DNA of 64,000 bases from an uncultured virus (IMG/VR IMGVR_UViG_3300025789_000022). Its lineage: Duplodnaviria; Heunggongvirae; Uroviricota; Caudoviricetes. Under the pieces are notes generated by a model. The model was not told where the DNA came from and did no database searches. It saw only the letters and a list, made by a program, of their open reading frames with translations. This document shows, piece by piece, positions 9,001 to 61,111 of the stretch (positions are counted from its first letter, which is position 1; every line of letters begins with the position of its first letter). The stretch is from IMG/VR virus record IMGVR_UViG_3300025789_000022. One strand, written 5' to 3'. A program made the translations under genes and the position numbers.

Positions 9001-12000
9001 CTGGCATATGTGTTATCTACTGTAATCTGTGGCTTAAACTTAGGATAAAGTCCAAGTTTTGAAGGAGTAGGTGGCACATTGCAGCCAAGAGTGCTACTAT
9101 ACTCATAGACATCAAGTGTATCCAAACGTGCGATAGTAAGAGAACTGGATAGCGATACTGTGAAATTAGTAATAGTATAATCAAAACCATTGACGAGCAA
9201 TACGCCATTTAAGTATACTAGCGCAGCAATATAACTGGTTGGCTTTGTAGAAAAATTAGTAGTTAGGTTAAAGTTTCTATAAGTTGTATCTTGTATAGTA
9301 TAGGTATTCTTAACATAATTGTTACCACCAGCAATCATATCGCTATAGTAAAAATTATTTGCACTATTGGCAGTAAGATTAAAATCTGCTAAAATAGTAT
9401 CTAAACACGCACGATAGTCGCCCGTATTACCAAATTGCTTTGTATTGATTGCATCTAATAATTGGTTTTTAAAGTTTTGATAACTCTGACTGGCAAAGTT
9501 GATTGCACGAACAGGATCAACATCTGGGTTAGAAAATAACAACGCAGCAGGACGCATACTTGCGCTATGTTGTAGCAGTTTTCCGCCAACATTATTATAC
9601 TTAATATCACGGAAGTTATTACTACCAGCAGGTGGTCCAATTAAATCTAGGCTATTATTACCAATTTCAATAAGATGATTACGAACTTGACCAAGTGTAA
9701 TTGTAGCAAATTCAGTGTTCTCACTATTGTTAGTAAGGTTTCTTGGCATAGTATACAATTGTTTATATACGGAACTAATGCCATTAATCTTAACGAACAG
9801 TCTATCACCTTCATTTAAGTTATTACTTAAATTTAAAATAGTAGTAGTTGCATTAGTAGTAATATTATAAGTGCCACTTGATTGCAGTACGCCATTAATG
9901 CTTACAAATAGATTTCTTTCATAATAACTGTTATTGTATACCACGTTCAAGTCAAAATTATTAAAACTTACCGCAGTTGCTGTAAATGTTTTAGTAATAT
10001 GCTGCTTACTCTTATCACTTACTTCTGTCCAACCATTTGCAAAAGTATAATTATTCCAACCAACAATAAAAGGTGCATAACCACTGTTAATGTTTACAAC
10101 AGTATCAATCTGATTTAAGTTGTAGTTAAATGTATCACTTACATAGTAATTTGAAAAAACAATATCACCAAGATTGCCAATACTTTGATATTTTAAACTA
10201 AAACCAAGTTCACTATCACGAGCACCGTTACCGATTGTATAACCAAATAGTTGACTGCCCTTAAAGTTACTACTTGGATAAGAAGCAGTATCACCTAGTA
10301 AAAAACCATTGCTATCTACAATATCAAATAGTGGAAACTGTGGTCTGCTGTTACGAATTTGTGCAGTGTTCCACACACCATCTACATAATAGAACATGTT
10401 TCCTTGATTGTTTATTCCATCTAGAGCAACAATAGCTTCACCGTTTTGAACGGTTTTATATGGTATAAGATTAATTTGATCAGCAGTATTATTAAATTGA
10501 ATATATGTGCCACTAGGTATGACATTTTTTAATTTACTACTAATATAAACAATATTATTACTCGAATCTATCTTAGTAATAGTTGTATTTGGATAGAATG
10601 GATTACTATCTGAGATTAAAGACCAACGTGTGTTATTTGGTGGAGAAATACCAAATGTATTAAAAGAAACCGTAACTCCCGTTCCGTCTCCAGTTACAGC
10701 ATTGCTTAAAGTAATAGTATTTGTATCTGTATTAATGTTTTTTACTATTGTACCAACAGGAATACGGCTGCTATTTCCTGTAGGAATATTTGTTTCAAAT
10801 ACAGCTTGTCCCGTTACAATTCCAAATGTACTAGCAACTGTTATGGTATTACTGTTGTTTGTTAGCGTAGCAGTAGTTGGCACAACGCTTGTGTCTACGA
10901 TAGTAAATGCTACATTCACGGCAGAGCCACTAGAAGATGCGTTATTGCTCAGTGTTACAGTTGTACCAGAAACATTAGTAACAACAGTTCCAAAAGGAAC
11001 ATATGTATCTAGTACATTAATCGGTTGTCCAATAGTAATACCCGTGGCGCTAGCTACCGTAATGTTATTGCTTGAAGCGGTAAAGGTTGCTGTAGTTGCT
11101 ATAGAACCTTGAATTGCAGTAGCACGATATGTATTATTTTTAAATGTTACATAATCACCAGTATTATAAACTGTACTATTATTATAAGGATTACTTCCAT
11201 AGATATAACTATTATTAAGAACAATTCCAGCAACTGCTTGACCAATACGCAAATTTGTAGTATCATTGATATAAAGTTGACTGGTGCCATCAGAACTATA
11301 TGCATAGGTAATAACATTATAAACAGCCGTGGCTCTTGTTTTAACAGTTTGAACCTGATATATGGTATTACGAACCGTTGGATTAGCATCGTTCTTGAAC
11401 AACACAGTAAAGCCATTTTGTAACTGAATACCATCAGTTATGAATACGCCATTGTTCTGTAGCGCATAGTTATTAAAACCTTCTACTTGTGCAAAGGCAT
11501 TGGTGATTGTGCTGTCCACAACAGTAACAGGACCAGCATAAGAGGTACCATGACTATAAAGTTTAAAGTCAGGTAGAAACTCTACAATAGGACGCTTTGC
11601 CTGGTAATTTGCATCAAATTCAAATGTTTGATTAGTTACATTTGCTGCATATTGTAGCACATCACGATGGAACCAACGGTTATTTCGACTCCAACTATTG
11701 CCATCTATGCTGCTACGGTTAATGGTAATATAATCTTTTTGAGTAGGATTGTTTGTGTTACCATCATATCCACCCGCATCATATCCTTCGCCGTTACCAA
11801 AGAAACCACCACTGGCGGCATTAATTGTTTCTGGTGTTACTAAATCAGCAAATTTAACAAGTCTAATAGCATTACCTACGCCTTCAACGATATATTCATT
11901 GCCGTAATAACCGCCAGGGGTTACTAGTCCAATAAATTTTACCTTTAAACCACTAGTAAATTGCACACCGTTTGGACTTGTATAATGGTCACGACCAATG

Positions 12001-20843: not shown

Positions 20844-23800
20844 TTATTGTGTTCCCGCATCTTCAGTCGGAGATGCATTAGGGTTAGTTCTAAATTGGGT
20901 GGCACTTGCACCACTTGAATCTTGTGGTACATATGAATATGTACCTGTTACTGGATTATATATTTTTTTAGTAGTAGTGTCTTGTACACTTCCTACATTT
21001 TTAAGTGTATTCATTTGCACTACATCTGGATTTGCGGGCGGATTTGGAATAGTAGTACTATCTGGTGCTGCAGTTCCATTTGTTGCTGGTTCTACTGGTG
21101 CATTTTCATTTGCTCCACGTGTTGCCGCATTAACAGTTTGTGATGGAATGCTGTCAGTTCTTGCAGCAGGTGCCTTGGGCGCAGTTTGATTACGAACACG
21201 CACATTTTTTAACTTCTGTGTGAACTTGCCGCCATTAAAATTACTTTTTACTGCTATAACATGATAAATTCCACTGAACTGACTGTATTTGCCACCACTG
21301 TTAAACAATCCGCTTGTATTATCATAATCGCTATCTGGTGTTGCAAAGTAAAAGTTAAAATAAACAGGATTGGTAAAGTTCACGCTTCCACTGCCCAAGA
21401 AACTTCCATTGGGTAATATAGGACCAAACAGTGGAACATCTTGTGAAATCCAATCTGGATCACCAACAATAGTCAAATCAAGTGAAATCATATCACCTGC
21501 ATTATCAAACAACTTTTCCATAAAATCTTGTGCTACGATCTGCTTATCTGATCCAGTAGTATCACTGGTATTCTGTTGGTTGGCAATACCAGTAGTGTGG
21601 AAATAACGTGGTTTAAAAAATCTATTGTCTGTGTAGCCATTATAGACAGCAACTTGTGAGTCGCCACTATCTTTGATATTATCTTTACTTTGTATGGTAT
21701 ATCTGGTGCTTACGCCATTCTTTACTTCAAAGAATGCCATTTGGTAATCTATGTTGACATCAAGTACGTCACGATTATTACCACTATAGATATATTCATA
21801 TAATTTTACAATCTCACTTTTTTGTACTTGTTGCTGTCCAAAGTTAGGAGAATCTTGACCACGTATTACATATGGAACTATATTATATGTGATTTCACGT
21901 TGATAAAAATTAGTTCCTTTATCAAGCGAACCAAATTGAATTGTAGGATTAATCTTCCACCAGTTAACAGGCGTGTCAACATTGGCTTGCGTTGAAACCT
22001 GATTAAGCACATAACTGCTTACCTTGATTACACTATTGATAAAATCAGTGATTTTGGTGCCTGCCTGTGCACGAAATGTTTTTTTGCTAAAGTCAGCAAT
22101 AAGATTACCTACCTTACCACCTTGTTTTAATTGTGCAGTTTTTGGGTCTTTACTATCGCCACTGGTGCTACCAACGCTGCGTTCACTAAAGGCTTTTGGG
22201 TCAGCAATTTGAGCATTCAATATATCTGTGTGAAATTTAAAATTATATTTGTTTGGTAGATATTGACCTTTATTAATTGGCGCAGCCGCTCCATCTTGGT
22301 CTTTAGCACCACCCTTTGTTTTATCAATTTCATTTTGATTGAGTGCAGATTGTAAACCCTTGGTAACAATAATATCAGCACCTGATTTAGCCAGATTACT
22401 TTGTGCATTTAACGATGTAGTAGAGGTTTCGCTTCCACTTCTATCACGATTGGCAACCTGTGAAGATGTTGTTCCACTAAACTCAGTGGCTTCAAATAGT
22501 TCTGCAATGGTTGTTGCTTGAGTTTCAACATGGAATGGAATTGTATTATCAATACCACTGTTAGCAAGTAAATTGGTAGGGATAACCGTGCAACTATAAA
22601 TTGTTCCACTGCTATTAATTTTAAATCGCATATTTAAAAAGGTAAAAGGAATATACTTTGTTGTGTTTTTAATCTTCTGAGGCTGTCCCATATCATCATA
22701 GCCCAAGAACTCAATAACCATCATAAAGAATAGCGTATCCCAAGAGGCGTTTGCACCAGGATTAAACTTTTGATTAATTTTATAACAATTTTCTAAGAAG
22801 TTAGTTGTATATGGTTCTATAATATCAAACTTCATTGTGATAACATCAGTACCACGTGTGCGTTGAGTAGGTGTTACAATGCTTTCAATCTCAAGATTAT
22901 CAATTGACAAATCAAGAGGAAAATAACTTTTATCTCCACCGCTAGCACCACGACCGCCATCACTCAATATAAACACGGCTCCACTTAACAGGGTAGGACC
23001 AGGATCACTGCTTGGGTCAAGTCCAACCATTTTATTAATGGTACTAACAGGAACGGCATATAAGGATATCTTATATGTTGAGTTAGTATAGGCATGCAAT
23101 TTATTAGAAGTATTGCTATAGGTTGGACTATTGCCGCCATTGCCGCTACCACTACCGCTGCCACTAGCACCACTTGTAGAATCATTTGTAGCAGGTCCAC
23201 TGCTTGTTACACGAGCGGTTCCACCATTTGGACCACTATTATAACTATCTGCTCCACTCTTTGGCGCAACATCACTGTTTGATGTTGCCGTTTGATCACT
23301 GGCAATACTAGAAGATGGTTTACTTACTGTGTCAATGTTCTGTGGTGGATTTCCACTTGGATTGTCTTCACTCTTACCATTAGTTGCTGAATTAACTGTT
23401 TGATTAGGTGATATTGAAGTTGCATCTGTGGGTATTTGATTTGTTCCACGAGGATCAACTGTAGGAGTAACAGTAGTTGTTACACTTGCGCCATTAGTTT
23501 GTGCACTATTAGTATCACTACTTGCTTCATTACGTGCTGCTTGACTAGTTACCGTTGTTTGTGCGGCAGCATTATCCGAATTGATTGCTGCTTGGTTTGT
23601 AGCAGCAGACTCAGCACTTGCCGCTGCAATTGAATTACTATCGCTTGGTGCAGTTATTGAACCAGCCTGACGATCACGATTATCTGCCGCAGCGTTTACT
23701 GCATTACTATTAGTAGGTGGTGTTGGAACTATAACAGGATTGCCTTGATTTGCAGTAATGATTGGCTGAGTAGTTTCCGACGTTGCAGCCGATGCTGCAT

Positions 23801-24203
23801 CTTCACGAGCAGTTTGTGCAGCATATGCCGAATTTAATGCAGAATCAAATGCGCTGCTAGGATTACTTGTTGCAAGTGCTGCGGCATATTGCTGTGCTGT
23901 TAGGTTTGTCTGTGGGGTATTAATTAACTGTCCAGTGCCAGCGCCAGTGTTGTTAGATATAATTGTATCATATGGTCCAATATCTTGTGGAAGCGCAAAT
24001 ATTGTATCAAAGCCACCAGTTGTGCCATTTCTTACCGCAACTTCAAGTGCAGGATAATTGCCACTTGTTGCAATTGCATATGCTTTTGCTTCATACTCAC
24101 CACCAAGTACTGCACCCGTTTGTGCAAGTTGTTGGTTATACCATGTTTTTAATTGAGCATTGGCAGCAGTAAGTTGTTCTTGGGGCGTAAGTGTTGTTGG
24201 CAC
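20844..24203 (-). CDS. Putative baseplate hub protein (gp27-like) with long low-complexity N-terminus
   Basis: C-terminal 'LDLTIVGDPDWI...FSGIYHVIAVKSNFNGGKFTQKL' is typical of hub proteins; lies between gp53-like and gp5-like genes. Confidence 0.6.
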   Translation of the reverse strand: MPTTLTPQEQLTAANAQLKTWYNQQLAQTGAVLGGEYEAKAYAIATSGNYPALEVAVRNGTTGGFDTIFALPQDIGPYDTIISNNTGAGTGQLINTPQTNLTAQQYAAALATSNPSSAFDSALNSAYAAQTAREDAASAATSETTQPIITANQGNPVIVPTPPTNSNAVNAAADNRDRQAGSITAPSDSNSIAAASAESAATNQAAINSDNAAAQTTVTSQAARNEASSDTNSAQTNGASVTTTVTPTVDPRGTNQIPTDATSISPNQTVNSATNGKSEDNPSGNPPQNIDTVSKPSSSIASDQTATSNSDVAPKSGADSYNSGPNGGTARVTSSGPATNDSTSGASGSGSGSGNGGNSPTYSNTSNKLHAYTNSTYKISLYAVPVSTINKMVGLDPSSDPGPTLLSGAVFILSDGGRGASGGDKSYFPLDLSIDNLEIESIVTPTQRTRGTDVITMKFDIIEPYTTNFLENCYKINQKFNPGANASWDTLFFMMVIEFLGYDDMGQPQKIKNTTKYIPFTFLNMRFKINSSGTIYSCTVIPTNLLANSGIDNTIPFHVETQATTIAELFEATEFSGTTSSQVANRDRSGSETSTTSLNAQSNLAKSGADIIVTKGLQSALNQNEIDKTKGGAKDQDGAAAPINKGQYLPNKYNFKFHTDILNAQIADPKAFSERSVGSTSGDSKDPKTAQLKQGGKVGNLIADFSKKTFRAQAGTKITDFINSVIKVSSYVLNQVSTQANVDTPVNWWKINPTIQFGSLDKGTNFYQREITYNIVPYVIRGQDSPNFGQQQVQKSEIVKLYEYIYSGNNRDVLDVNIDYQMAFFEVKNGVSTRYTIQSKDNIKDSGDSQVAVYNGYTDNRFFKPRYFHTTGIANQQNTSDTTGSDKQIVAQDFMEKLFDNAGDMISLDLTIVGDPDWISQDVPLFGPILPNGSFLGSGSVNFTNPVYFNFYFATPDSDYDNTSGLFNSGGKYSQFSGIYHVIAVKSNFNGGKFTQKLKNVRVRNQTAPKAPAARTDSIPSQTVNAATRGANENAPVEPATNGTAAPDSTTIPNPPANPDVVQMNTLKNVGSVQDTTTKKIYNPVTGTYSYVPQDSSGASATQFRTNPNASPTEDAGTQ

Positions 24204-29667: not shown

Positions 29668-30050
29668 TTGTATCACTATCTCACCGAGAATTACAAAATT
29701 ATAAAATAGTTGTTGGTGATAAAGAATTTACAAATCAATCAGCAGATATATTACTGATTGATTCTATTATGACAAGGATATACTTTGAACCATATAAAAT
29801 AAAACCACTATTAAGAATAGATAATATGCTTGTAAATTATTGGTTAGCAGATGTTACGCAATATGACCACATGTTAGAGTTTACTATTTCAAATGATTTT
29901 TGGATTAAATATTATAATAAAGAAACACAAAATCAAATAAATTTTGCCAATACCAATTATAAAAATGACCCCATGGCAATTGACAAATATGTTGGTATTT
30001 TTGATTCAAGTAACCTAATAAAAATTATAAGAGATAACTTAATTGGATAA
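29664..30050 (+). CDS. Hypothetical protein (low-GC island)
   Basis: 128-aa ORF coupled to gp46 by an ATGA overlap and overlapping the radical SAM gene. Confidence 0.65.
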   Translation: MIVSLSHRELQNYKIVVGDKEFTNQSADILLIDSIMTRIYFEPYKIKPLLRIDNMLVNYWLADVTQYDHMLEFTISNDFWIKYYNKETQNQINFANTNYKNDPMAIDKYVGIFDSSNLIKIIRDNLIG

Positions 30051-31476
30051 TATTTTACTAGTAACAGTACCAAAGCAAGATTTAAATAACCCACCTGCGG
30101 CACTGGGAATATTAAGTGCAATTTGTATACAAAACAGTATTGAACCACGTATACTAGATTTAAATCAAATTTTATCTAAAGAACTAACTGCTGACGAATG
30201 GCAAGATTTAGATGTTAAAAGTGCTCTTGGTAATAACATCCCACAGTTAAATTTACTGTTAAAACAAAAAATAAACGATATTTTTACCAAAGAATTAAAA
30301 AAACATATCAATAAACATACACAATTTATTGCAATAAGTGTTTTTACTTTTGAAAGTATCGTATCTACAGATATCTTATTAGAATGTTTAAGTGATATAA
30401 ATGTAGAAGTTATTGTTGGTGGCACAGGATTAGAATCTGTTTTTAACAATAAACCTTATTACGAAACAATTGCTGATGCGGTAGATTATATTGTGCTTGG
30501 TGATGGTGAAATAAGTTTTGATATGATATTAAAAAGACAATGCGACAAAAAAATAGTAAAATACAGCAATGATCGTGATTTAAATAATTATCCGTTACCA
30601 GATTATACCAAGTTTCCTAAACAAGATTATAGTTGGAATAAGGTTTATATAACTGGAAGTCGTGGATGTGTACGTAGTTGTACATTTTGTGATGTTGCAA
30701 ATTATTGGCCACAGTTCAGATATCGTGATGCAGACCTGTTAATTGAAGAAATTCGTAAACATGTCGGTGAGACTGGTGTGACACACTTTGAATTTACAGA
30801 TAGCTTAATAAACGGTAATATTTCAAATTTCTATAAATTTAATCAAAAATTAGCAGAACTTAAGATTAAAGATAGCAATCTTAAAGATGTTACCTATAGT
30901 GGACAATTTATTTGTCGTCCAGAAAAACAGATGCCAACACAGCATTATGAGGCAATGCATTATGCTGGTTGTAATCAAATAAGCATTGGTATTGAAAGTT
31001 TTAGCGAATCTGTGCGTAATCACATGAAAAAGAAATTTTCCAATGCTGATATTGATTATCACCTAGAGCAAAGTGCATATTGGGGTATACCAAATATTTT
31101 TTTAATGATTAGTGGTTACCCTACAGAAACACAAGCTGATCATGCAGAAAATATAAAATACTTGCACAAATATCAAAAATATGTTTACAGCAATACTATT
31201 TTTATGATAAGTTTTGGGTTTACAATGCACCTATTACACAATACGCCAATTATGAATATGATTGAAAACCTTGATATTAAAATACCAGATAATTCCATGA
31301 GTAATATATTTGATTGGGAAGTAGGCAATAATAATTTAAAGAATAGAATATTGAATAGACTTGAATTGCATGAAGTTGCATATAAACTTGGCTATAAAAT
31401 GCCAAGAAGCTACTCATATCTTAAATTTATAGAAGAACTTGCACAAAAAATAAGTAATGATAAAGAGGTTATATAA
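30043..31476 (+). CDS. B12-binding-domain radical SAM protein
   Basis: 'GSRGCVRSCTFC' (CxxxCxxC), N-terminal 'PPAALGILSA...IVGG...GDGE' domain, 'IGIESFS', 'GYPTET'. Confidence 0.88.
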   Translation: MDNILLVTVPKQDLNNPPAALGILSAICIQNSIEPRILDLNQILSKELTADEWQDLDVKSALGNNIPQLNLLLKQKINDIFTKELKKHINKHTQFIAISVFTFESIVSTDILLECLSDINVEVIVGGTGLESVFNNKPYYETIADAVDYIVLGDGEISFDMILKRQCDKKIVKYSNDRDLNNYPLPDYTKFPKQDYSWNKVYITGSRGCVRSCTFCDVANYWPQFRYRDADLLIEEIRKHVGETGVTHFEFTDSLINGNISNFYKFNQKLAELKIKDSNLKDVTYSGQFICRPEKQMPTQHYEAMHYAGCNQISIGIESFSESVRNHMKKKFSNADIDYHLEQSAYWGIPNIFLMISGYPTETQADHAENIKYLHKYQKYVYSNTIFMISFGFTMHLLHNTPIMNMIENLDIKIPDNSMSNIFDWEVGNNNLKNRILNRLELHEVAYKLGYKMPRSYSYLKFIEELAQKISNDKEVI

Positions 31477-32837: not shown

Positions 32838-33950
32838 ATGTTAGACCCAACAACACTGCCACCACAAGTTCATAATTTTGGATTTTGGCTTGTAGACAAT
32901 GACATTGTTTTTAGTAAAGTAAAAAGTGTTTTAGCTGCCCAGCAGAAAAATACCAACAATATTCGTTTTTATTATCATGACCATACTTTCAACCGCATTG
33001 ACTGGACAATTGAACCTGCACAAACATTGACAGAGTTATATAAAGAAAGAGCATTGCAGCTAAGAGAAAATTATGATCATGTTGTATTACTATATAGTGG
33101 CGGCAGTGATAGCAGTAATGCCCTAAAAACTTTTATAAACAATGATATTAAGTTAGATGAGGTTTTTTGTTGGTATACTAGTCACAATGAACACAAAAAT
33201 CTTACTAATCTTGAAATTATACACTCTGCCAGTGGCATGTTAGAAAAAGTTCAAGGGTTAGGCATAACAGTAACTAAAATTGATGAAAATCCATACTTTG
33301 ATAAAACTGATTTAAAAAATCCAGAATGGACTCTATCTGCCGAACCTAATCTAGTTTCTGCTCAAATTAACAAATTAAAGATTTTCCAAGAGAATAAATC
33401 ATGGCGAACACTTGCAGATAGTGGTAAGAAGATAGCAATTATACTTGGACTAGAAAAACCAAGAATTTTTTACGATAGCGGTAAATGGGTATCTGCATTC
33501 TTAGATGTATCAAATGCATGGAATTGGGAAGAATTACATACTCTTCCTCAACCATTTACACTAGAACCATTCTATATTAGCCCACATTCTCCACTTATAA
33601 CCATTAAACAATCTCACATAGTTAAAAATTATATCAATAAAACATATAGTGTTGACTTTATAAATGATAATTTCAGCAAGCATAGGTTTAATCAAGAACT
33701 ATATTATATAATAGTTAGAAACACATGCTATCCATATTGGGATGATAATACGTTTAGTATTGGAAAAGACGTGCCTGTGTTAAAAGAAAAGTATCGTTGG
33801 GTATGGGATAGTAATACACAGTTATCACAGGATTATTTTTCTGGATTGCATTGGGTTGAAAAAAATATAGATTCGCAGTTTTTCAATGGTGGAAAAATAT
33901 ACAATGGATTAGTAGGTTCTTGGTCACGATGGTATAATTTAGATGCTTAA
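32838..33950 (+). CDS. PP-loop (adenine nucleotide alpha-hydrolase-like) protein
   Basis: 'VVLLYSGGSDS' PP-loop; substrate unknown. Confidence 0.7.
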   Translation: MLDPTTLPPQVHNFGFWLVDNDIVFSKVKSVLAAQQKNTNNIRFYYHDHTFNRIDWTIEPAQTLTELYKERALQLRENYDHVVLLYSGGSDSSNALKTFINNDIKLDEVFCWYTSHNEHKNLTNLEIIHSASGMLEKVQGLGITVTKIDENPYFDKTDLKNPEWTLSAEPNLVSAQINKLKIFQENKSWRTLADSGKKIAIILGLEKPRIFYDSGKWVSAFLDVSNAWNWEELHTLPQPFTLEPFYISPHSPLITIKQSHIVKNYINKTYSVDFINDNFSKHRFNQELYYIIVRNTCYPYWDDNTFSIGKDVPVLKEKYRWVWDSNTQLSQDYFSGLHWVEKNIDSQFFNGGKIYNGLVGSWSRWYNLDA

Positions 33951-35253
33951 TCTATTATTATTTTCAATATTGGGGTGTATTGCCGGAACTGTCACTGGTG
34001 CAGTACCTGGTTTATCTAACAGTGTTTCATTAATAATACTTTATCCATTACTATCTTTATTACAAGCTAACGAAATTGTTGCTTTTTATATCTGCATGGT
34101 CACCACTACACAGTATTTTGGTAATGCTGCTGCAACTTTATTAGGAATACCAACAGAACCTACTTGCTTACCAAGTGCCAAAGAAGGTTATAGTTTAACA
34201 CGTCGTGGTAACGCAAGCGAAGCATTAAGCAGTGGTGCTATTGCAAGTTTCTGTGGCAGTTTAATTGCAGTGTCTTTTAGTTTAATAATATTTTTTATAG
34301 GAAATAACTATTCATTATTATATAATTTCAAATTACAATTTTTTATTATAATCTTTACATGCTTAATTACGGTGTTTTCAAGTTCAAATAAACATGTCAT
34401 TAGTTTTTTATTATTAATATGTGGTTATGTTTTAGGAATGATTGGTGTAAATTCAATTACACGAGAATCATTTTTAACATTTAATAATTCTTATTTGGTC
34501 AGTGGCATACCACCAATTATATTTTTAGTATTTTTATATAGTTTACCATCATTAATTGCGTTTGAACGTAAAAATATTAAAAATAATATATTTGAATCAA
34601 TCACGTATAAGTTTGTATTGCCAGTAACAACTGTTATTCGTAGTTCAATTATTGGATTTATCTGTGGATTTATTCCTATGCTAGGTATTGTTATAAGCAG
34701 TAACTTATCTTACAGTATTGAACGGTTTGTCAATCACAAGACCTATAATAATAACGGCGATATTCGTGGACTAGCAAGCAGCGATGCGGGACATAATAGT
34801 GGGTTAGTTGCAAGTTTAATACCATTGTTTTGCTTGGCAATACCTATTACAGCAAGTGAGTATATACTATATGATCTTACAACATATCGTGGTTTAATCT
34901 ATAATTATACATGGTTAACTGCAAACTATGTATGGATTTTTAGTATTTTTATACTAGCAAATTGCGTTGGTGTGGCAATAAGTTGGCCATTGTCTATTAC
35001 ATTAATGCGAATTATTGTACGATATATGGAACATTTTAAATACTTTGGTATTGCTTTATTAATTATTGCAGTATTATATGTTGGAATTATCACCAATCAA
35101 TTACAATTTTTTATTATATTAAGCGCAGTTTTTTTACCATTGGGGTTATTACTGCGTAAATTTGATTTACTGCCATTACTGTTAGGATTTATGTTATCCC
35201 AACAATTTGACAGTATAACAAGAATAGTTTATAGTTTATACATAAAAGGATAA
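33943..35253 (+). CDS. TctA-like tripartite tricarboxylate transporter permease
   Basis: Highly hydrophobic; 'GTVTGAVPGL', 'YFGNAAATLLGIPTEP', 'EGYSL', 'ASSDAGHNS', 'LAIPITASE' and 'PLLLGFML' follow TctA motifs. Confidence 0.75.
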   Translation: MLNLLLFSILGCIAGTVTGAVPGLSNSVSLIILYPLLSLLQANEIVAFYICMVTTTQYFGNAAATLLGIPTEPTCLPSAKEGYSLTRRGNASEALSSGAIASFCGSLIAVSFSLIIFFIGNNYSLLYNFKLQFFIIIFTCLITVFSSSNKHVISFLLLICGYVLGMIGVNSITRESFLTFNNSYLVSGIPPIIFLVFLYSLPSLIAFERKNIKNNIFESITYKFVLPVTTVIRSSIIGFICGFIPMLGIVISSNLSYSIERFVNHKTYNNNGDIRGLASSDAGHNSGLVASLIPLFCLAIPITASEYILYDLTTYRGLIYNYTWLTANYVWIFSIFILANCVGVAISWPLSITLMRIIVRYMEHFKYFGIALLIIAVLYVGIITNQLQFFIILSAVFLPLGLLLRKFDLLPLLLGFMLSQQFDSITRIVYSLYIKG

Positions 35254-35256
35254 CAC

Positions 35257-36120
35257 ATGAAAACTACTATTACAACATTATTAATACTTTCCAGTATTAC
35301 CACAGCAAACGCATTTGATATTACCGTAGGAGTACCGCCAGGTGGAACCAGCGGTAGAACTGCCATTGTAATGCAAGATTCCTTACAAGACAGTGATATT
35401 AAATCAAATATCAATTATAGTCCAAATTGTGCTGTTGTTAAGGCGCAGATTGAACGTGGTGAAAAAGTTGTATATATTAATACAGATCAGGGATTATTTG
35501 ATAAAGCATGTCATCTTGATATTAATGGTAAGAATGTTAAAATATTAGACGAGTTGTATTATTATACCATTGCGTTGTGCTACCGTAGTGACAGAACTAA
35601 TCTAGGATGGGATAACTTTAAAAACAATAATATCAAGAAAAATGTTGCATCGGCTATCATTTACACTGATACTTTGCATAAGATATTTGATAAAATGAAT
35701 ATAACCAATACAAGTATCGTGCCTGTTGGAAGTCTTGGCAAAACTCGTGAGGTAATTTTAGGAAATGAATTTGATTATGCACTAGTAGACGCAGATTGGG
35801 TTTCACAAAATAGTGATAAGGTAGATTGTTTGTTTATTGGTACAGAAAAAGATGTTACTTTAAACGGCAAGACGTTTAAATCATTGCCTACCTATTTGAA
35901 AAATAATCATGGCATTATTAACTCACCGCAATTACAAGATGCGTTTATTCTTATTGGTGCAAATTTATCAAGTGAAGAAGAAAGCAAAGTAATGGATGAA
36001 ATGGCAAAAATTCGCCGCAATTCAAAGTGGTATAACTTTGTAACTCAATTTGGCAAGGCAGAATTGCATGCATCGGATAAGAAATATCAAGAATTAGAAA
36101 ATACTTTAGAGGGAAAATAA
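35257..36120 (+). CDS. Secreted solute-binding protein, TctC/Bug-like (divergent)
   Basis: Signal peptide (…TANA|F), then 'ITVGVPPGGTS' resembling the Bug PxGG motif; directly after the TctA-like gene; AAGGA RBS. Confidence 0.6.
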   Translation: MKTTITTLLILSSITTANAFDITVGVPPGGTSGRTAIVMQDSLQDSDIKSNINYSPNCAVVKAQIERGEKVVYINTDQGLFDKACHLDINGKNVKILDELYYYTIALCYRSDRTNLGWDNFKNNNIKKNVASAIIYTDTLHKIFDKMNITNTSIVPVGSLGKTREVILGNEFDYALVDADWVSQNSDKVDCLFIGTEKDVTLNGKTFKSLPTYLKNNHGIINSPQLQDAFILIGANLSSEEESKVMDEMAKIRRNSKWYNFVTQFGKAELHASDKKYQELENTLEGK

Positions 36121-36653
36121 TGCACTATCAACTATTGCCTAATTTACCAATGGTACCACAAGAACTAATAGATGCAACATTAAATTTAATCGATAAGCAA
36201 GATTTATTGTATTATCTTAACTCGGTGTCACGTCCTATAAGCAGTTTAAATAAAAAATTTCCACGAACTATGTTGCATCCTGATTTAGAAACATGGTTGC
36301 GTAATAATATTATTGATGGTGCAAACAAGTATGAATTAGCCATTACACTTGATGATAATGATGCTCATTCAATATTACCACACACAGACCGTGCCAGAGA
36401 ATACACAATAATATATTTGTTGCAAAGTGGCGGCGAGGATCATAAAACTGTTTTTTATGAAAGCAAAACAATAAAAAATATAGACAAGATGATGACTTTC
36501 GATTATAGTGATCTTATAGAAGTAGATAGTATTGTTGTTCCAATTGAAAAATGGACTATTCTCAACGCACAAGAAATTCACAGCGTTGAAAACATTCCAC
36601 ATACCAGAATTGCAATACAGATAAGCATGGATCACAATCCTTGGGCGTCATAA
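36120..36653 (+). CDS. 2OG-Fe(II) oxygenase-like protein
   Basis: 'LPHTD', 'EIHSVEN' and 'RIAIQI' give the HxD...H...R pattern. Confidence 0.6.
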   Translation: MHYQLLPNLPMVPQELIDATLNLIDKQDLLYYLNSVSRPISSLNKKFPRTMLHPDLETWLRNNIIDGANKYELAITLDDNDAHSILPHTDRAREYTIIYLLQSGGEDHKTVFYESKTIKNIDKMMTFDYSDLIEVDSIVVPIEKWTILNAQEIHSVENIPHTRIAIQISMDHNPWAS

Positions 36654-36689
36654 AAATTTTATAATTCAATACAAAATGCATAACTACTA

Positions 36690-36950
36690 TTAGGCAATTC
36701 AGGCACATTAGGCAACCAGTCCCCCCATACGAGATACTCTAGAAGGTTGGCAGCACTCCGATAATTGCGGCAACAGGGACAAGGCACAAAAAACGACGTG
36801 GCTCTGAGAAAAAGCAACCACAGCAGTATTATGTTCGCTAACAAGGGCATAAATCACTGATCCGCTGGAATAATCTACTAGACTAAGGGAGTACAGGCTA
36901 GCCGCTCCGCTCAATAACATGAGTTCTTTTTGTTAGTATCGTCCTGAAAA
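36690..36950 (+). ncRNA. Candidate large structured non-coding RNA
   Basis: GC-enriched region without a credible CDS; multiple stems and a loop-to-distal pseudoknot; preceded by CATAACTA. Confidence 0.55.
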
Positions 36951-37057
36951 ACTCATATGAAGCATTTCTGGTGATATAGGTTCCAGAAATGGAATCTATA
37001 TACAAACCCTCAAATCTATATGAAACATTAAAGATTAATTATAAAGAAGAATTAAAA

Positions 37058-37114
37058 GAGCGAAGCGAAAGGTGAACGAGCGATAGCGAGTGAACTGATA
37101 GGCGAAGCCTATCA
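37058..37114. other. GCGAAGC mini-hairpin cluster / primosome-assembly-site-like element
   Basis: GAGCGAAGCGAAAGGTGAAC and GAGCGATAGCGAGTGAAC repeats, then the perfect hairpin TGATAGGC-GAA-GCCTATCA. Confidence 0.45.
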
Positions 37115-37120
37115 TAATAG

Positions 37121-37160
37121 ATTAGAAGTAATTAGAAGTAATTAGAAGTAATTAGAAGTA
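37121..37160. repeat. Perfect tandem repeat (ATTAGAAGTA)x4
   Basis: Directly visible; the last copy contains the stop codon of the 37152-37346 ORF. Confidence 0.98.
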
Positions 37161-37346
37161 TGGCAATCCGCTCTTCTTTGTAGTTTCCATGTGTTCCTCA
37201 ACAATTTTAGCAATAAGATTTCGTTCAGTGACACTCATATTCATAGCTTCTGTATATGTAACACCACCACGCATATGCCAACACATTTGAAGGATGTTAG
37301 ATTTTATTTTTTTAATATCACTTTCATACTGATCCACTAGCGACAT
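37152..37346 (-). CDS. Small baseplate/tail assembly protein, probably the -1 frameshift extension of the upstream gene
   Basis: 'CWHMRGGVTYTEAMNMSVTER' resembles the short gp51/GT-type chaperone segment; no clear SD; the frame is open back to the slippery site. Confidence 0.7.
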   Translation of the reverse strand: MSLVDQYESDIKKIKSNILQMCWHMRGGVTYTEAMNMSVTERNLIAKIVEEHMETTKKSGLPYF

Positions 37347-37366
37347 GATTTCATCATGAGAAAGGT

Positions 37367-38209
37367 TTACGATAGCGGCTCGAAAAAATTTCCATAATCA
37401 AATTCAATTTTTACATCATATTCTTTTTCACAAGCCTCACAAAAAACATGTGCTGGTTGAATAGACATAACACTATTAATTTCAGCAATTTTATTTTGCA
37501 CAAGTTTAATAATCTTATTTGTTGTATTCTTATAAAATTCTCTTATGTGATTTGAATCAGTTACTACTATCCCTTCTTCAGTAGTAATACTTTCGGTTTG
37601 ATTTGAAATAAGTGTATTTCCAATATCAACTACATTTTGTAAGTGTAAATCAAATTGTGCCTTGCGAGTCTCATCGTCAATTGTTTCGTCGCCTACTAAT
37701 TGCATTATTTTTTGTTCTTCAAAGTCAATTAAGTTAGATTTATTGCTCTGTAAGTAATTTTGTGGTTTAAATTTAAAAATTAATCCTTCAATCTCAATAG
37801 AAGTTGAATAATCTGGACTTTTTACTTTCATTAATAATGGACCTAGACTCATTTGATGTCTATTTTCGTTATCACAATTAGGGCATTTACTGTCTATATC
37901 CATATCATCGCCGTATGTGGCAATTCTAATGGCTATCAATATAGCATCAATATCAATAGTTGGGCAACCCCAAGCATTAGTTATTGCTGGCACACAACTT
38001 TCAACTACACTTACAACACCCTGTCCATTCATAAGTGCATCTGGTGTTCGTAGCATTACTTCATCTTTTGCTGTCATAGGCATTACTCCTACTTCACCTG
38101 ATGCAGGCAAAGATAAACTATTAGGAGTCCAGTATTTTCCTCCACTAGGCAGTTTCAAGAAGATTGCAGGTTGACGAAAGTGTTTGAAAAGTGGATTAGA
38201 ATTTTGCAT
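37367..38209 (-). CDS. gp26: Baseplate hub assembly chaperone, T4 gp26-like
   Basis: 'LKLPSGG...VMPMTAKDE...DIDAILIAIRIATYG' with two CxxC pairs (CPNC, CEAC). Confidence 0.75.
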   Translation of the reverse strand: MQNSNPLFKHFRQPAIFLKLPSGGKYWTPNSLSLPASGEVGVMPMTAKDEVMLRTPDALMNGQGVVSVVESCVPAITNAWGCPTIDIDAILIAIRIATYGDDMDIDSKCPNCDNENRHQMSLGPLLMKVKSPDYSTSIEIEGLIFKFKPQNYLQSNKSNLIDFEEQKIMQLVGDETIDDETRKAQFDLHLQNVVDIGNTLISNQTESITTEEGIVVTDSNHIREFYKNTTNKIIKLVQNKIAEINSVMSIQPAHVFCEACEKEYDVKIEFDYGNFFEPLS

Positions 38210-38275
38210 TTTTTGTTTCCATAAATAATTGATGTGCTATGTTATATAGTATGCAGTTATTTAGAAGAGTAAAAA

Positions 38276-40570
38276 ATGGCTATCAGTGATAAAGATGTTG
38301 AAGATATTAAAGAAAGAATCTTAAAGATAAACGATACCTATGGTACGCTTGAAAAATCTTTGTTACAATTAGATAATGCAGTAAAAAGTGGAACTTTAAA
38401 CCAAAGAAATGCTGGTATAGGTTTTAAAAATGAAACTGAACTTAGAAATCGTATACAAAAAGGTGCAACTCAAAGTTTACAATATCTTACTCAAGCCTAT
38501 AAAGATGGCAATGCTAGTTTTGGAGAAGTAAGGGTAGCGTTACAAGAATTTCGTGATAAAGCATTAGCCGCTGCCGGTGATAATGACAAATTAAGGAAAA
38601 AAATAGAAGCAGATTTTCGAGTACGTGAGCAAGGTTTACGAATTCAAACATTATACAACAAATATCTAAGTGATGGTATGAAAGCCGCAAGCACTGCAGT
38701 AGGTGGATTAGTATCAGCCTATCAAAAAAGCAGTGGTGGATTAGATGCAGCATTAAATTTTTCAAGTGTTGGATTAACACTGCTTACTACTGCAGTTAAG
38801 GCTGCTGGTAAAGCATTAGGTTCTATACCATTTATTGGTGGTGCGATTGAAGCTGGTGCAGTAGGTCTCAGTGATACTGTCATGGCTATTAAACCAGTAC
38901 TTGATGCAGAAGTTTTAAAATTAGCAAGTTCATTTAAAACAGCAAGTGAAAGTGGATTAATATTTGCCAATGGTGTTAGTGGTTTACAAGAATCAGCATA
39001 TAATGCTGGTATAACTACTGATCTTTTTGCACAATCTATGAAAGATAACAGTGAAGCTGCGGTGTTGTTTGGTGGTAATATGACTGCGGCTGCTGGTAAA
39101 ATAGGAAAAGTAAGCAAATTAATTGATACAGAATCTTTGCAGAAATTAGGTTTTAATCTTCAAGAAATACCAGGATTGATTGCACAAACAGGTGCTAGGT
39201 TAGCTAAAAGTGGTACTGCCAGTGATGCTCAGGTTGCCAAGGCAACAATGGACTATGCAAAAAATTTAAGAATAATTGCAGATATCACTGGACAAGATGC
39301 AAAGACACTGATGCAAAAACAAGAAACTGCTGAAAAAGATTTAGCATATCAGCAGTTTCTAGCAGATAAAAGTCCAGAAGAAGCAGATGCTATCCGTGCA
39401 CAAATGATGGCACTGCCTGAATCAGTTCAGGCAATAGCTAAAGAAATGATGGTCAGTGGTGGCGCAATAACAAGTCAACAAAGCGCCATGATTGCGCAAC
39501 AAGTGCCTGCATATAAAGCAATGGCAGATGCTGCCGTTGCTGCAGCAAATAATGGAACTGCTGGTGCTGAAACAGGAGTTCGTATTCTAAAGCAATATGC
39601 AGATGCCGCTAATACCGAATCACTGAGAATTAAAGATTTTGCTCGTGCTGGCAGCATTTTGGGTGGTGAGATTGGCGCTACTGCAGAGGCTATAGGTAGA
39701 GATAGAAAAATGTTAGTAGCAGCACAAAAAACTAATGTAGAAGAATTGATTGATACTGTAAAAAAAGGAATGGCAACAACAGACCCAACTACCGTCAAAC
39801 TTGCTGAAAGTGAACGTGATGGTATGAAACTTATGATTGAAACACAAAAAGCATTAAACGAAGTATTGCCCGCATATCTTACTACTGTAAAAGATTTAAA
39901 TGTAGTAACTTTGAATTTAGTTAAAGGATTTGGTTCACTTGTTGATATGGTAATGGGTGAGAACAAGAAAAAAACAGGAGAAAATTCAGAGGTTAATGGA
40001 AGTGACAGTGCTGCATCTAGAAGAACAAATTTAAGTCAAACATTTAATTCTACAAATGATGCATCTAGTGGAGTTGCTGCTGCTGCTTTATCTCAACAAA
40101 GAAATATTGATACCAAAGATTTAGCAAGTTTTGCTACTATGATTAGTGGGACACCAGGTGGACTTGACCCTGATCATGATGCACCCCCTGATGCTCTTGC
40201 ATGGTTACAAGCACATCCTGATGATCCAAGAACAAAAGAATTTTTAGCACGAACAGGAGCACAACTTGCTCGTGGCGGTATTGTAAATGGACCAACAAGC
40301 GGTTTTCCAGCAACACTACATGGCAGTGAGGCTGTAATACCGTTACCAGATGGTGTAAGTAGTCCAGAATTTGCAACTGCACTTCAAAGATTAGCAGGTT
40401 TACCTACAGTTGATCCTGCACAGGCATTGCTACAAAGTACGGTTTCAAACAACTCTTCAAATATGAGTAGTGATTTATTAATGTTATTAAACTCAAAAAT
40501 TGATGATTTAATCAGTGCCACCAAAGATGTTGTGCAATACACTAAAGATACTAGTGTTAGAATTATGTAA
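38276..40570 (+). CDS. Putative tape measure protein (764 aa)
   Basis: Ala-rich helical protein with C-terminal 'LARGGIVNGP...LHGSEAVIPL'; divergent from the chaperone gene. Confidence 0.6.
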   Translation: MAISDKDVEDIKERILKINDTYGTLEKSLLQLDNAVKSGTLNQRNAGIGFKNETELRNRIQKGATQSLQYLTQAYKDGNASFGEVRVALQEFRDKALAAAGDNDKLRKKIEADFRVREQGLRIQTLYNKYLSDGMKAASTAVGGLVSAYQKSSGGLDAALNFSSVGLTLLTTAVKAAGKALGSIPFIGGAIEAGAVGLSDTVMAIKPVLDAEVLKLASSFKTASESGLIFANGVSGLQESAYNAGITTDLFAQSMKDNSEAAVLFGGNMTAAAGKIGKVSKLIDTESLQKLGFNLQEIPGLIAQTGARLAKSGTASDAQVAKATMDYAKNLRIIADITGQDAKTLMQKQETAEKDLAYQQFLADKSPEEADAIRAQMMALPESVQAIAKEMMVSGGAITSQQSAMIAQQVPAYKAMADAAVAAANNGTAGAETGVRILKQYADAANTESLRIKDFARAGSILGGEIGATAEAIGRDRKMLVAAQKTNVEELIDTVKKGMATTDPTTVKLAESERDGMKLMIETQKALNEVLPAYLTTVKDLNVVTLNLVKGFGSLVDMVMGENKKKTGENSEVNGSDSAASRRTNLSQTFNSTNDASSGVAAAALSQQRNIDTKDLASFATMISGTPGGLDPDHDAPPDALAWLQAHPDDPRTKEFLARTGAQLARGGIVNGPTSGFPATLHGSEAVIPLPDGVSSPEFATALQRLAGLPTVDPAQALLQSTVSNNSSNMSSDLLMLLNSKIDDLISATKDVVQYTKDTSVRIM

Positions 40571-40584
40571 TAGCCCAATATAAC

Positions 40585-40592
40585 TATAAATA
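40585..40592 (+). promoter_or_regulatory. T4-type late promoter (representative of a recurrent TAAATA motif)
   Basis: TATAAATA before the portal gene. TAAATA also at + 32680, 38222, 42397, 42727, 45365, 46953, 54143, 55096, 57298, 61086 and - 16680, 17100, 25595, 38258, 46863, 57267. Confidence 0.8.
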
Positions 40593-46826: not shown

Positions 46827-46978
46827 CTGTTTTCTCCATGAGGTATGTTCTTTTATATCACGTATTTATATGCAGTGCAACATAAATTTGACTGCATTAT
46901 ATACTTCTCTGCTATGCGTTAAAACATAGGTAAACAATCATTCAATTTATGGTAAATATAAGATAATAGGATTTACAC

Positions 46979-57207: not shown

Positions 57208-57322
57208 TGCGCTGTGTTCCTCTTAAACATAGAGTAGGTGGGGCTGCAACCCGTGACCTACACTATTATTTATAAAAAGTTAAAAATTATTTTTCCATAA
57301 ATATAAAAATAGGGTATAAAAG

Positions 57323-61065: not shown

Positions 61066-61111
61066 TGTCTAACCATATAACTGTATAAATATCATTAACG
61101 GAGATTTATCT

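Follow-up and report, generated by a model that had tools for sequence, protein, structure and literature searches.

A predicted structured noncoding RNA of approximately 430 nt at a convergent gene junction of uncultured freshwater jumbo myoviruses, and its relation to the Polynucleobacter-1 motif

Introduction

A single long gene-free gap, 498 nucleotides (nt) in length (positions 36654-37151), is found in a 64,000-nt stretch of DNA, hereafter called the window, which derives from an uncultured jumbo myovirus (IMG/VR record IMGVR_UViG_3300025789_000022; Caudoviricetes). An original prediction had proposed this gap as an RNA-primed replication origin of the ColE1 type or, alternatively, as a large noncoding RNA locus of another function. 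The latter is strongly backed by the finding of a conserved, covarying and pseudoknotted RNA on the plus strand. Judged from sequence comparison, the gap is probably the gene for a structured noncoding RNA of approximately 430 nt, which is read from the plus strand, converges on a baseplate-hub operon and would exert its role as a folded molecule.

The locus and its neighbouring genes

The gap is preceded by an open reading frame (ORF) on the plus strand (36120-36653) and followed by two ORFs on the minus strand (37152-37346 and 37367-38209), which confirms that transcription converges on it. The ORF at 37367-38209 encodes a T4-type baseplate-hub protein, gp26-like (PF12322, E = 1.1e-15), whose best matches among cultured phages are found in jumbo phages of 345-490 kilobases (kb), namely Phosso, Atu_ph07 and RaK2, at around 30% identity (approximately 31% for Phosso and Atu_ph07), while its closest uncultured relatives are IMG/VR records and metagenome contigs of up to 345 kb. 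That no second long gene-free stretch exists in the window has equally been borne out. The additional gaps apparent in a first ORF map, crude in that only ATG starts were considered, contain a giant open-ended ORF (3-13265) and ORFs with GTG or TTG starts (20844-24203 and 30043-31476).

The features previously described for the gap are all present where they had been placed. The GC-richer multi-stem segment is real, with a GC content of 0.48 over 36700-36899 versus approximately 0.30-0.35 in the flanks and with helices backed by covariation. An A/T-rich tract with a 13-nt period is present after the repeats at 37029-37059, and GCGAAGC-type hairpins are present at 37060-37066 and at 37102-37108. 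The direct repeats ATATGAAGCATT (36955-36966) and ATATGAAACATT (37018-37029) are located 63 base pairs (bp) apart with an inverted repeat (36963-36971 / 36983-36991) in between. Repeats, distance and an intervening hairpin have thus been recovered; the 'bistable' alternative pairing is confined to the window, and the conserved hairpin is the one at 36971-37003.

Conservation, copy number and genomic context

Relatives of the gap were gathered via the gp26-like protein, because the gap gave no blastn match in a collection of phage records and none in Rfam, neither for positions 35500-38500 at E <= 10, with the Polynucleobacter-1 model RF01718 included, nor for the whole window at gathering threshold. 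In relatives whose gp26 protein is only 63-66% identical, the gap retains 72-74% nucleotide identity. The element was recovered in 62 of 82 loci by profile search and subsequently, by nhmmer, in 140 of 162 loci of a wider set. Two covariance models were employed, R1 of the central domain, built from a MAFFT alignment, and R2 of the 3′ domain. R1 matches 85 and R2 89 of 100 sources, with at most one match per source, and five records of 220-345 kb, one of them 99% complete, contain one R1 copy each (5/5). In the profile and R1/R2 searches of loci drawn by gp26, the element is invariably located on the strand opposite to the gp26-like gene.

A set of viral loci independent of gp26 was drawn by a 16-nt core pattern. 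R1 matches 76 of these 80 loci and none of 80 bacterial loci (genome_contigs) carrying the same pattern, where the pattern hits are thus chance. Among the 76 positive loci, 52 have a convergent gp26 homologue within 2.5 kb; the flank is too short in 10, adequate but without gp26 in 12, and the arrangement is different in 2. In the whole records of the cultured phages Phosso and Atu_ph07, R1 found no match, the best E being 0.69 with filters off around gp26. Phosso does possess a 1-kb unannotated stretch (L403:5224-6237) near gp26, between the genes for RNase HI and a 'Holliday junction resolvase', in which R1 equally has no match. The conservation of the gap and its covariation in related phages, two features which the original prediction had suggested to check, are hereby both found, and the family is a large, undescribed, single-copy one in uncultured freshwater jumbo myoviruses.

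In 109 of 112 distinct loci, the central domain is preceded by a same-strand ORF whose end lies 30-420 nt away, and these ORFs fall into 16 clusters. Most frequent is a SegE-like protein of approximately 144 amino acids (aa) that consists of a GIY-YIG domain only (70/109; PF19835, E = 8.5e-33), next to a PD-(D/E)XK endonuclease (14/109; PF24608, E = 2.2e-22) and, in seven loci, a 370-aa protein without assigned family. Although the typing is crude, the type of the RNA 5′ domain tends to track the family of the upstream gene. Examples of RNA-adjacent upstream genes in relatives are:

L066:4977-5411, the RNA's own strand: upstream gene
L045:4969-5406, the RNA's own strand: upstream gene
L054:5040-5561, the RNA's own strand: upstream gene

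In the window, the upstream ORF encodes a 177-aa protein which clusters solely with its counterpart in one relative (L010) and has no match in Pfam, PHROGs or NCBIfam, the best PDB sequence match being at E = 0.24. Its earlier designation as a resolvase could not be upheld, as it carries no resolvase signature and bears no similarity to the 'resolvase' of Phosso. The Phosso gene annotated as Holliday junction resolvase has motifs in common with the PD-(D/E)XK cluster, as judged by eye and not by direct comparison, and this likeness may have been the source of the designation.

Structure of the central domain and the strand of the RNA

The extent of the RNA is given by the limits of conservation, from which its 5′ and 3′ ends were inferred. 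The features of its central part are as follows:

36690-37115, plus strand: predicted structured RNA of approximately 430 nt, from nhmmer and blastn conservation and covariance model matches at 36791-36948 and 36942-37117
36791-36948, plus strand: central domain; R1 matches at 89.1 bits (E = 1.6e-16), the sole match in 64 kb
36798-36821, plus strand: helix Pc (GTGG/CCAC), which closes the near-invariant loop CTCTGAGAAAAAGCAA; 100% of cells paired, 3 of 4 pairs changed on both sides
36824-36836 / 36845-36859, plus strand: hairpin Pd with the loop GCTAACAA (36837-36844); 12 of 12 pairs changed on both sides
36837-36844 with 36930-36937, plus strand: pseudoknot PK of 8 bp between the Pd loop and TTGTTAGT; 7 of 8 pairs changed on both sides
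36880-36927, plus strand: three-way junction of Py, Pe and Pf, from the covariation alignments
36880-36882 / 36925-36927, plus strand: Py; 100% paired in group A, 77% family-wide
36888-36892 / 36904-36908 and 36896-36897 / 36902-36903, plus strand: Pe with the near-invariant core GGTACNGGNNNACCGCC; 98.9-100% paired
36910-36913 / 36920-36923, plus strand: Pf; 97.2% paired in group A, 63% family-wide

Helices were defined by hand and then tested for pairing and covariation against shuffles and slid controls. In a structure-blind MAFFT alignment of 73 diverse sequences (A4), 83.9% of the cells of the central domain are paired versus 66.1% in shuffles, and the covariation score amounts to 0.426 versus 0.166, a value that 0 of 500 shuffles reach and that slid controls (0.07-0.15) do not approach. 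In the covariance model alignment of 71 distinct sequences, 89.1% of the cells are paired with a score of 0.498 versus 0.166 for shuffles, and in subgroup A, to which the window belongs (18 sequences), pairing is 85.5% versus 73.7% with a score of 0.370 versus 0.152. Throughout all covariation tests, the 3′ domain included, scores of 0.37-0.66 stand against 0.15-0.19 for shuffles (0/500) and 0.04-0.15 for slid controls. The pseudoknot is paired in 96.3% of the cells in the MAFFT alignment and in 92.0% in the covariance model alignment, and an initial register for Pf, paired in 24% only, was rejected. RNAalifold gave many compensatory pairs and several invariant G-U pairs among the closest relatives, and fragments only in an early family-wide run on the nhmmer alignment. 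Overall, covariation supports around ten helices including the 8-bp pseudoknot.

Several observations assign this structure to RNA and to the plus strand. G-U pairs outnumber A-C combinations by 381:66 in the central domain and by 88:8 in the 3′ domain, and tandem G.A pairs and GNRA-type loops are present. No ORF consistent across relatives was found; the frame through the central domain is fully open in 4 of 71 sequences on the plus strand and in 17 of 71 on the minus strand, and a protein-coding gene in the gap was rejected as no frame is kept open. The G-U bias, the G.A and GNRA motifs and the lack of a conserved ORF thus place the structure on a plus-strand RNA of approximately 430 nt, and equally so does the Rfam model RF01718, which in relatives matches the same strand.

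The 5′ domain

The 5′ domain is the lineage-variable part of the RNA. In the window it comprises the following features:

36692-36714, plus strand: three AGGCA repeats with 9-nt spacing at the 5′ end of the RNA, a feature of subgroup A, conserved as CAGGCAnnTTAGGCA in the group-A alignment
36719-36780, plus strand: 5′ domain with a long-range helix that encloses GAAGGTTG and the hairpin Ha
36751-36755 / 36766-36770, plus strand: hairpin Ha; 4 of 5 pairs changed on both sides, 98.9% of cells paired

The long-range helix joins GTCCC (36719-36723) with GGGAC (36776-36780), and the enclosed GAAGGTTG (36742-36749) is invariant. Variants of the helix, read by eye from the group-A alignment and uncounted, are GTCC/GGAC, TCCA/TGGA and CCCA/TGGG.

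The 3′ domain and its twin repeats

For the 3′ domain (36942-37117), the R2 alignment shows 94.5% of cells paired versus 68.7% in shuffles, a score of 0.659 versus 0.193 (0/500) and changes on both sides in 25 of 26 pairs. Its features are:

36952-36963, plus strand: repeat r1, CTCATATGAAGC, which changes in parallel with r2
36971-37003, plus strand: hairpin Ph between r1 and r2, with a GAAA loop at 36986-36989 in the window; 9 of 10 pairs changed on both sides, 93.1% paired
37015-37026, plus strand: repeat r2, TCTATATGAAAC, which changes in parallel with r1
37027-37070, plus strand: variable A/T-rich linker of 11-83 nt across 88 sequences, including the GCGAAGC mini-hairpin at 37060-37066
37071-37097, plus strand: hairpin with two tandem G.A mismatches and a GATA (GNRA-like) loop; 6 of 6 pairs of the outer and 2 of 2 of the inner helix changed on both sides
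37097-37113, plus strand: terminal hairpin GATAGGC-GAA-GCCTATC; 8 of 8 pairs changed on both sides, 96.6% paired

The tandem G.A mismatches of the hairpin at 37071-37097 are replaced by Watson-Crick pairs in relatives. The terminal hairpin is likely the 3′ end of the RNA and, read from the other strand, could also provide the gp26 operon mRNA with a 3′ hairpin; in relatives, the stop codon of the opposite-strand ORF lies directly next to the last hairpin. Within the linker, the mini-hairpin unit AGAGCGAAGCGA is found on the plus strand in the window, while its reverse complement ATCGCTTCGCTCT occupies the same place in several distant relatives (L074, L078, L071 and others in alignment A6).

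The repeats r1 and r2, which correspond to the direct repeats of the original prediction, are conserved, comprise 12 nt, flank Ph and are part of longer units of approximately 24 nt. Comparison of the two copies by alignment columns in 88 distinct sequences demonstrates that variable positions change in parallel:

Column 18/89: same letter in both copies in 87 of 87 (44 G, 43 A)
Column 19/90: same letter in both copies in 87 of 87 (67 G, 15 A, 3 T, 2 C)
Column 23/93: same letter in both copies in 87 of 87 (63 G, 23 A, 1 C)
Column 26/96: same letter in both copies in 83 of 86 (61 A, 22 T)

Only 3 nt from the variable positions, CTC (CUC) in r1 versus TCT (UCU) in r2 stays a fixed difference, which makes simple homogenisation of the two copies unlikely. 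Base pairing does not explain the parallel change. An antiparallel duplex of r1 with r2 is not supported, with 75.6% of cells paired versus 75.0% in shuffles, and mutual information, family-wide and within 20 D-type RNAs, revealed no third sequence complementary to the repeats. By reasoning, a K-turn or box C/D element, CsrA sites, mini-ORFs, a mini-CRISPR array and a target-site duplication were dismissed, as the motif would be broken by the variable positions or as the fixed differences persist. The spacing of the repeats varies continuously between 48 and 63 nt without helical phasing; this suits two strands brought side by side at the foot of an RNA hairpin more than it suits phased sites in duplex DNA. 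Our tentative explanation is that a single recognition element is present twice, as r1 and r2, and that the same partner reads both, in the simplest case an RNA-binding protein that is dimeric or has two sites; the requirement for the same letters in both copies would then follow.

Relation to Polynucleobacter-1 and other known RNAs

In the excerpted description by Weinberg et al. (2010; PMC2864571), Polynucleobacter-1 (RF01718) is a motif of 141 nt known from 16 sequences, a candidate cis-regulator of Burkholderiales and of fresh water and estuary samples without assigned function. Within the RNA family described here, the model (gathering threshold, 37 bits) matches two loci, L045 and L078, at 113 bits, as well as 8 of 19 further loci, all of the D type, and 0 of 11 loci of the A, B or C type. 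In ten distant relatives, the RF01718 match (63-120 bits) is located directly 5′ of the R1 match, as in L066 with RF01718 at 4843-4977 and R1 at 4690-4832. As R1 and R2 match the window as well as RF01718-bearing loci (for example L066, L074, L062, L045 and L078), the central domain is common to both, and the RNA of the window is therefore homologous to the undescribed 3′ two-thirds of the RF01718-bearing RNAs. Subgroup D carries the motif as the 5′ third of the element, so that RF01718 represents a fragment of a much larger undescribed RNA. In other words, one branch of a family of approximately 450 nt, whose central and 3′ domains are undescribed, has the 141-nt motif as its 5′ domain, and the window is a sister branch with a different 5′ domain, composed of the three AGGCA repeats, GAAGGTTG and Ha. 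Habitat (fresh water, estuary) and strand are alike, whereas the RNA of the window differs in length (approximately 430 nt), in being phage-borne and in its location 3′ of genes. A search for RF01718 gave no match in 3 genomes and none in 151 sampled genomes of one family; the control was silent everywhere, and this search therefore says nothing on absence. In the literature on jumbo phages and noncoding or structured RNA, this RNA is not described among the matches listed.

Elaborate orphan RNAs offer another comparison. GOLLD, ROOL and OLE have been characterised, in the excerpted text of Kretsch et al. (bioRxiv 10.1101/2024.12.08.627333), as large 'ornate' RNAs that form homo-oligomers, assemblies made of RNA only. 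So far as this excerpt describes them, an elaborate fold backed by covariation, pseudoknots, conserved tertiary-type motifs and an occurrence in lake and phage sequences are shared; the RNA of the window is however smaller (approximately 430 nt), and no tRNA is located in the window. The Rfam models of GOLLD, ROOL, OLE, HEARO and raiA have no match in the window.

Promoters, terminators and further features of the window

A late-promoter-like motif had been noted upstream of the RNA. It is present, while only 6 of its 8 positions agree with the T4 late-promoter motif TATAAATA:

36679-36686, plus strand: CATAACTA, 'late-promoter-like' motif, 6 of 8 positions of TATAAATA

Among 18 group-A relatives, CATAACTA is common only to L085; it is a possible weak promoter for the RNA. 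Exact TATAAATA motifs occur four times in the window versus approximately ten expected by chance, at 40585-40592 and 61084-61091 on the plus strand and at 46863-46870 and 57267-57274 on the minus strand. Each of the four is located in a short gap directly before a gene, which makes the use of T4-type late promoters by the phage probable. No sigma-70-like site was found at the 5′ end of the RNA, the AGGCA repeats are not enriched as a promoter motif throughout the window, and a scan of 36400-37400 on both strands for intrinsic terminators (a G+C-rich hairpin followed by a U tract) gave 0 sites.

Between the 3′ end of the RNA and the downstream ORF, a short array is found:

37121-37160, no strand assigned: four perfect tandem copies of ATTAGAAGTA, which overlap the stop of the 64-aa ORF and are outside of the conserved RNA

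This repetition is absent in 16 of 17 group-A relatives, with two imperfect units in L091, and the expansion is thus specific to the lineage of the window; it looks like a recent slippage expansion.

The ORF at 37152-37346 on the minus strand, downstream of gp26, encodes a 64-aa protein with the motifs MCWHMRGG and ETTKKSGLPYF and without family match. By tblastn (E <= 1e-3), this protein or homologues of five relatives have a match in 60 of 76 RNA-selected loci. At 33943-35253 on the plus strand, a full-length TctA-family subunit of a tricarboxylate transporter is encoded (PF01970, E = 3.7e-55); in a phage, such an auxiliary metabolic gene would be unusual. The giant ORF at 3-13265 on the minus strand exceeds 4421 aa and continues past the left end of the window; the next ORFs comprise 1129, 1239 and 1119 aa. 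A scan of the window for tRNA and tmRNA found none.

Discussion

Conservation, structure, strand, single copy number and synteny of the RNA are established by the comparisons above, and from them a role can be proposed. The RNA would combine a lineage-variable 5′ domain with a conserved central domain, where a three-way junction is accompanied by an 8-bp pseudoknot formed by downstream pairing of the Pd loop, and with a 3′ domain consisting of a hairpin between twin units, a variable linker and two terminal hairpins. Its transcription would start at a weak promoter of its own, or it would form the 3′ part of the upstream operon's transcript; it would end at the terminal hairpins and may act as a folded scaffold for protein, possibly as a catalyst, rather than as a DNA site. 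With moderate confidence, a role at the RNA level is proposed, in which the RNA would be a folded scaffold or a catalyst and would have a two-site partner.

A number of points weigh against this view of the gap as the gene for a structured RNA. The sequence of the window on its own does not fold with significant stability, with z = -1.46 on the plus strand, where 6 of 100 shuffles fold equally well, and z = -0.64 on the minus strand, so that the case for more-than-chance structure is a comparative one. Within the comparison, alignments fitted to a covariance model favour the structure of the model, and kinship alone can outscore shuffles without any structure; for these reasons the counts in the MAFFT alignment and the slid controls are the more telling evidence, and they argue against an artefact. 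Py and Pf are weak across the family (77% and 63% paired) with shifts in register. Promoter and terminator of the RNA were not recognisable in the scans, and the upstream gene of the window (177 aa) fits no family. Most loci were drawn by gp26, and in the independent set 12 of 66 loci with adequate flank are without gp26 nearby. The parallel change of r1 and r2 fits two DNA sites of one DNA-binding protein equally, and the function of the RNA is wholly inferred.

Alternative explanations can be weighed against these data. As a cis-acting element, the RNA could be a structured 3′ untranslated region that stabilises the upstream mRNA or insulates the converging transcription units, or both, with terminal hairpins serving both strands. 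The co-directional ORF that precedes the central domain at a distance of 30-420 nt in 109 of 112 distinct loci, the constant position at a convergent junction, the contact of the last hairpin with the opposite-strand stop codon in relatives and the lack of a recognisable promoter of its own are all in line with such an element. Nevertheless, the RNA stays unchanged next to upstream genes drawn from at least 16 unrelated clusters, no U-tract terminator is found on either strand, and 430 nt with pseudoknot, junction and invariant loops would exceed what protection of a 3′ end needs, which renders this explanation unlikely. An RNA-primed origin, in which the RNA would be a primer precursor like ColE1 RNA II or the R-loop of T4 oriF/oriG and the repeats and the A/T-rich tract would be initiator sites and unwinding element, is improbable. 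ColE1 RNA II is likewise a folded and conserved RNA of several hundred nt, and here as in the ColE1 and T4 origins a noncoding transcript of such length is followed by an A/T-rich stretch. The locus is moreover the sole noncoding gap of the window, the parallel change of the direct repeats resembles that of protein-binding iterons, and upstream genes in relatives are often DNA nucleases. On the other hand, specific support for an origin is missing. The A/T-rich linker is not conserved in sequence, varies between 11 and 83 nt and is nearly absent in some relatives, which leaves no conserved unwinding element, and only two repeats with continuous, unphased spacing of 48-63 nt are present instead of at least three phased iterons. 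The cumulative GC skew, a check proposed for the origin, has no inflection at the locus, neither in the window nor at the corresponding 207-kb position in G155, a relative of 345 kb that is 99% complete, although the skew in these genomes simply follows the direction of transcription. No replication or initiator family was found among the genes adjoining the element in the window, and no RNAI-like match in Rfam. Pseudoknot and three-way junction would be more elaborate than an R-loop primer needs, and the conservation of the structure far exceeds that known from T4 origins.

Two further explanations concern the genes and proteins that may act on the locus. HEARO and the omega-RNA of IscB-TnpB are nuclease-associated RNAs, and the element might analogously be the RNA partner of the upstream nuclease or, alternatively, a homing target beside free-standing endonuclease genes. 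A small same-strand nuclease gene does accompany the RNA in 84 of 109 distinct relatives (GIY-YIG SegE-like in 70/109, PD-(D/E)XK in 14/109), and the type of the 5′ domain tends to follow the upstream gene family, as far as crude typing tells. These nucleases are however GIY-YIG or PD-(D/E)XK and not RuvC/HNH enzymes, the window keeps the RNA yet has no recognisable upstream nuclease, and neither transposon ends nor an evident guide-like variable segment were seen. Unrelated nucleases beside one conserved gene would reflect the usual turnover of homing endonucleases and tell little about the job of the RNA. Overall, a nuclease link is quite improbable. The 3′ domain might finally work at the DNA level, with the repeats as sites of one DNA-binding protein for packaging, transcription control or recombination that overlap a transcribed structure. 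Identical parallel changes in both repeats without a complementary partner found within the element, and the unsupported r1 x r2 duplex (75.6% versus 75.0% for shuffles), speak for this explanation. Yet the hairpin between the repeats covaries, the G-U bias of the plus strand (88:8) holds for the whole 3′ domain, the repeat spacing is unphased and both repeats form part of longer units in which the surrounding sequence is conserved as RNA-like motifs, so that sites on DNA are highly improbable.

Large, highly conserved pseudoknotted RNAs are rare, and such RNAs have often turned out to be catalytic or to form the core of a cellular machine. Extending the reading of the gap as a gene for a folded RNA, one might tentatively consider a new class of 'ornate' jumbo-phage RNA that works as a folded machine, either as a ribozyme or as the core of a ribonucleoprotein or RNA-only assembly, with the twin units as a pseudo-two-fold module recognised either by a dimeric partner or by adjacent copies of the RNA; this is a possibility to be kept in mind rather than an expectation. 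If true, Polynucleobacter-1 would amount to no more than the 5′ domain in a single branch of this class.

Irrespective of its mode of action, a new large RNA class with one copy each is present across a broad clade of uncultured freshwater jumbo phages. The 16-year-old orphan motif Polynucleobacter-1 is explained as a piece of a phage RNA of approximately 450 nt and not as an element of a bacterial 5′ untranslated region. The parallel change of r1 and r2 is a signal unusual in evolution and provides a direct handle for finding the partner. Furthermore, the RNA is ready for experiment, as its boundaries are defined and two covariance models as well as over 100 natural variants are at hand.

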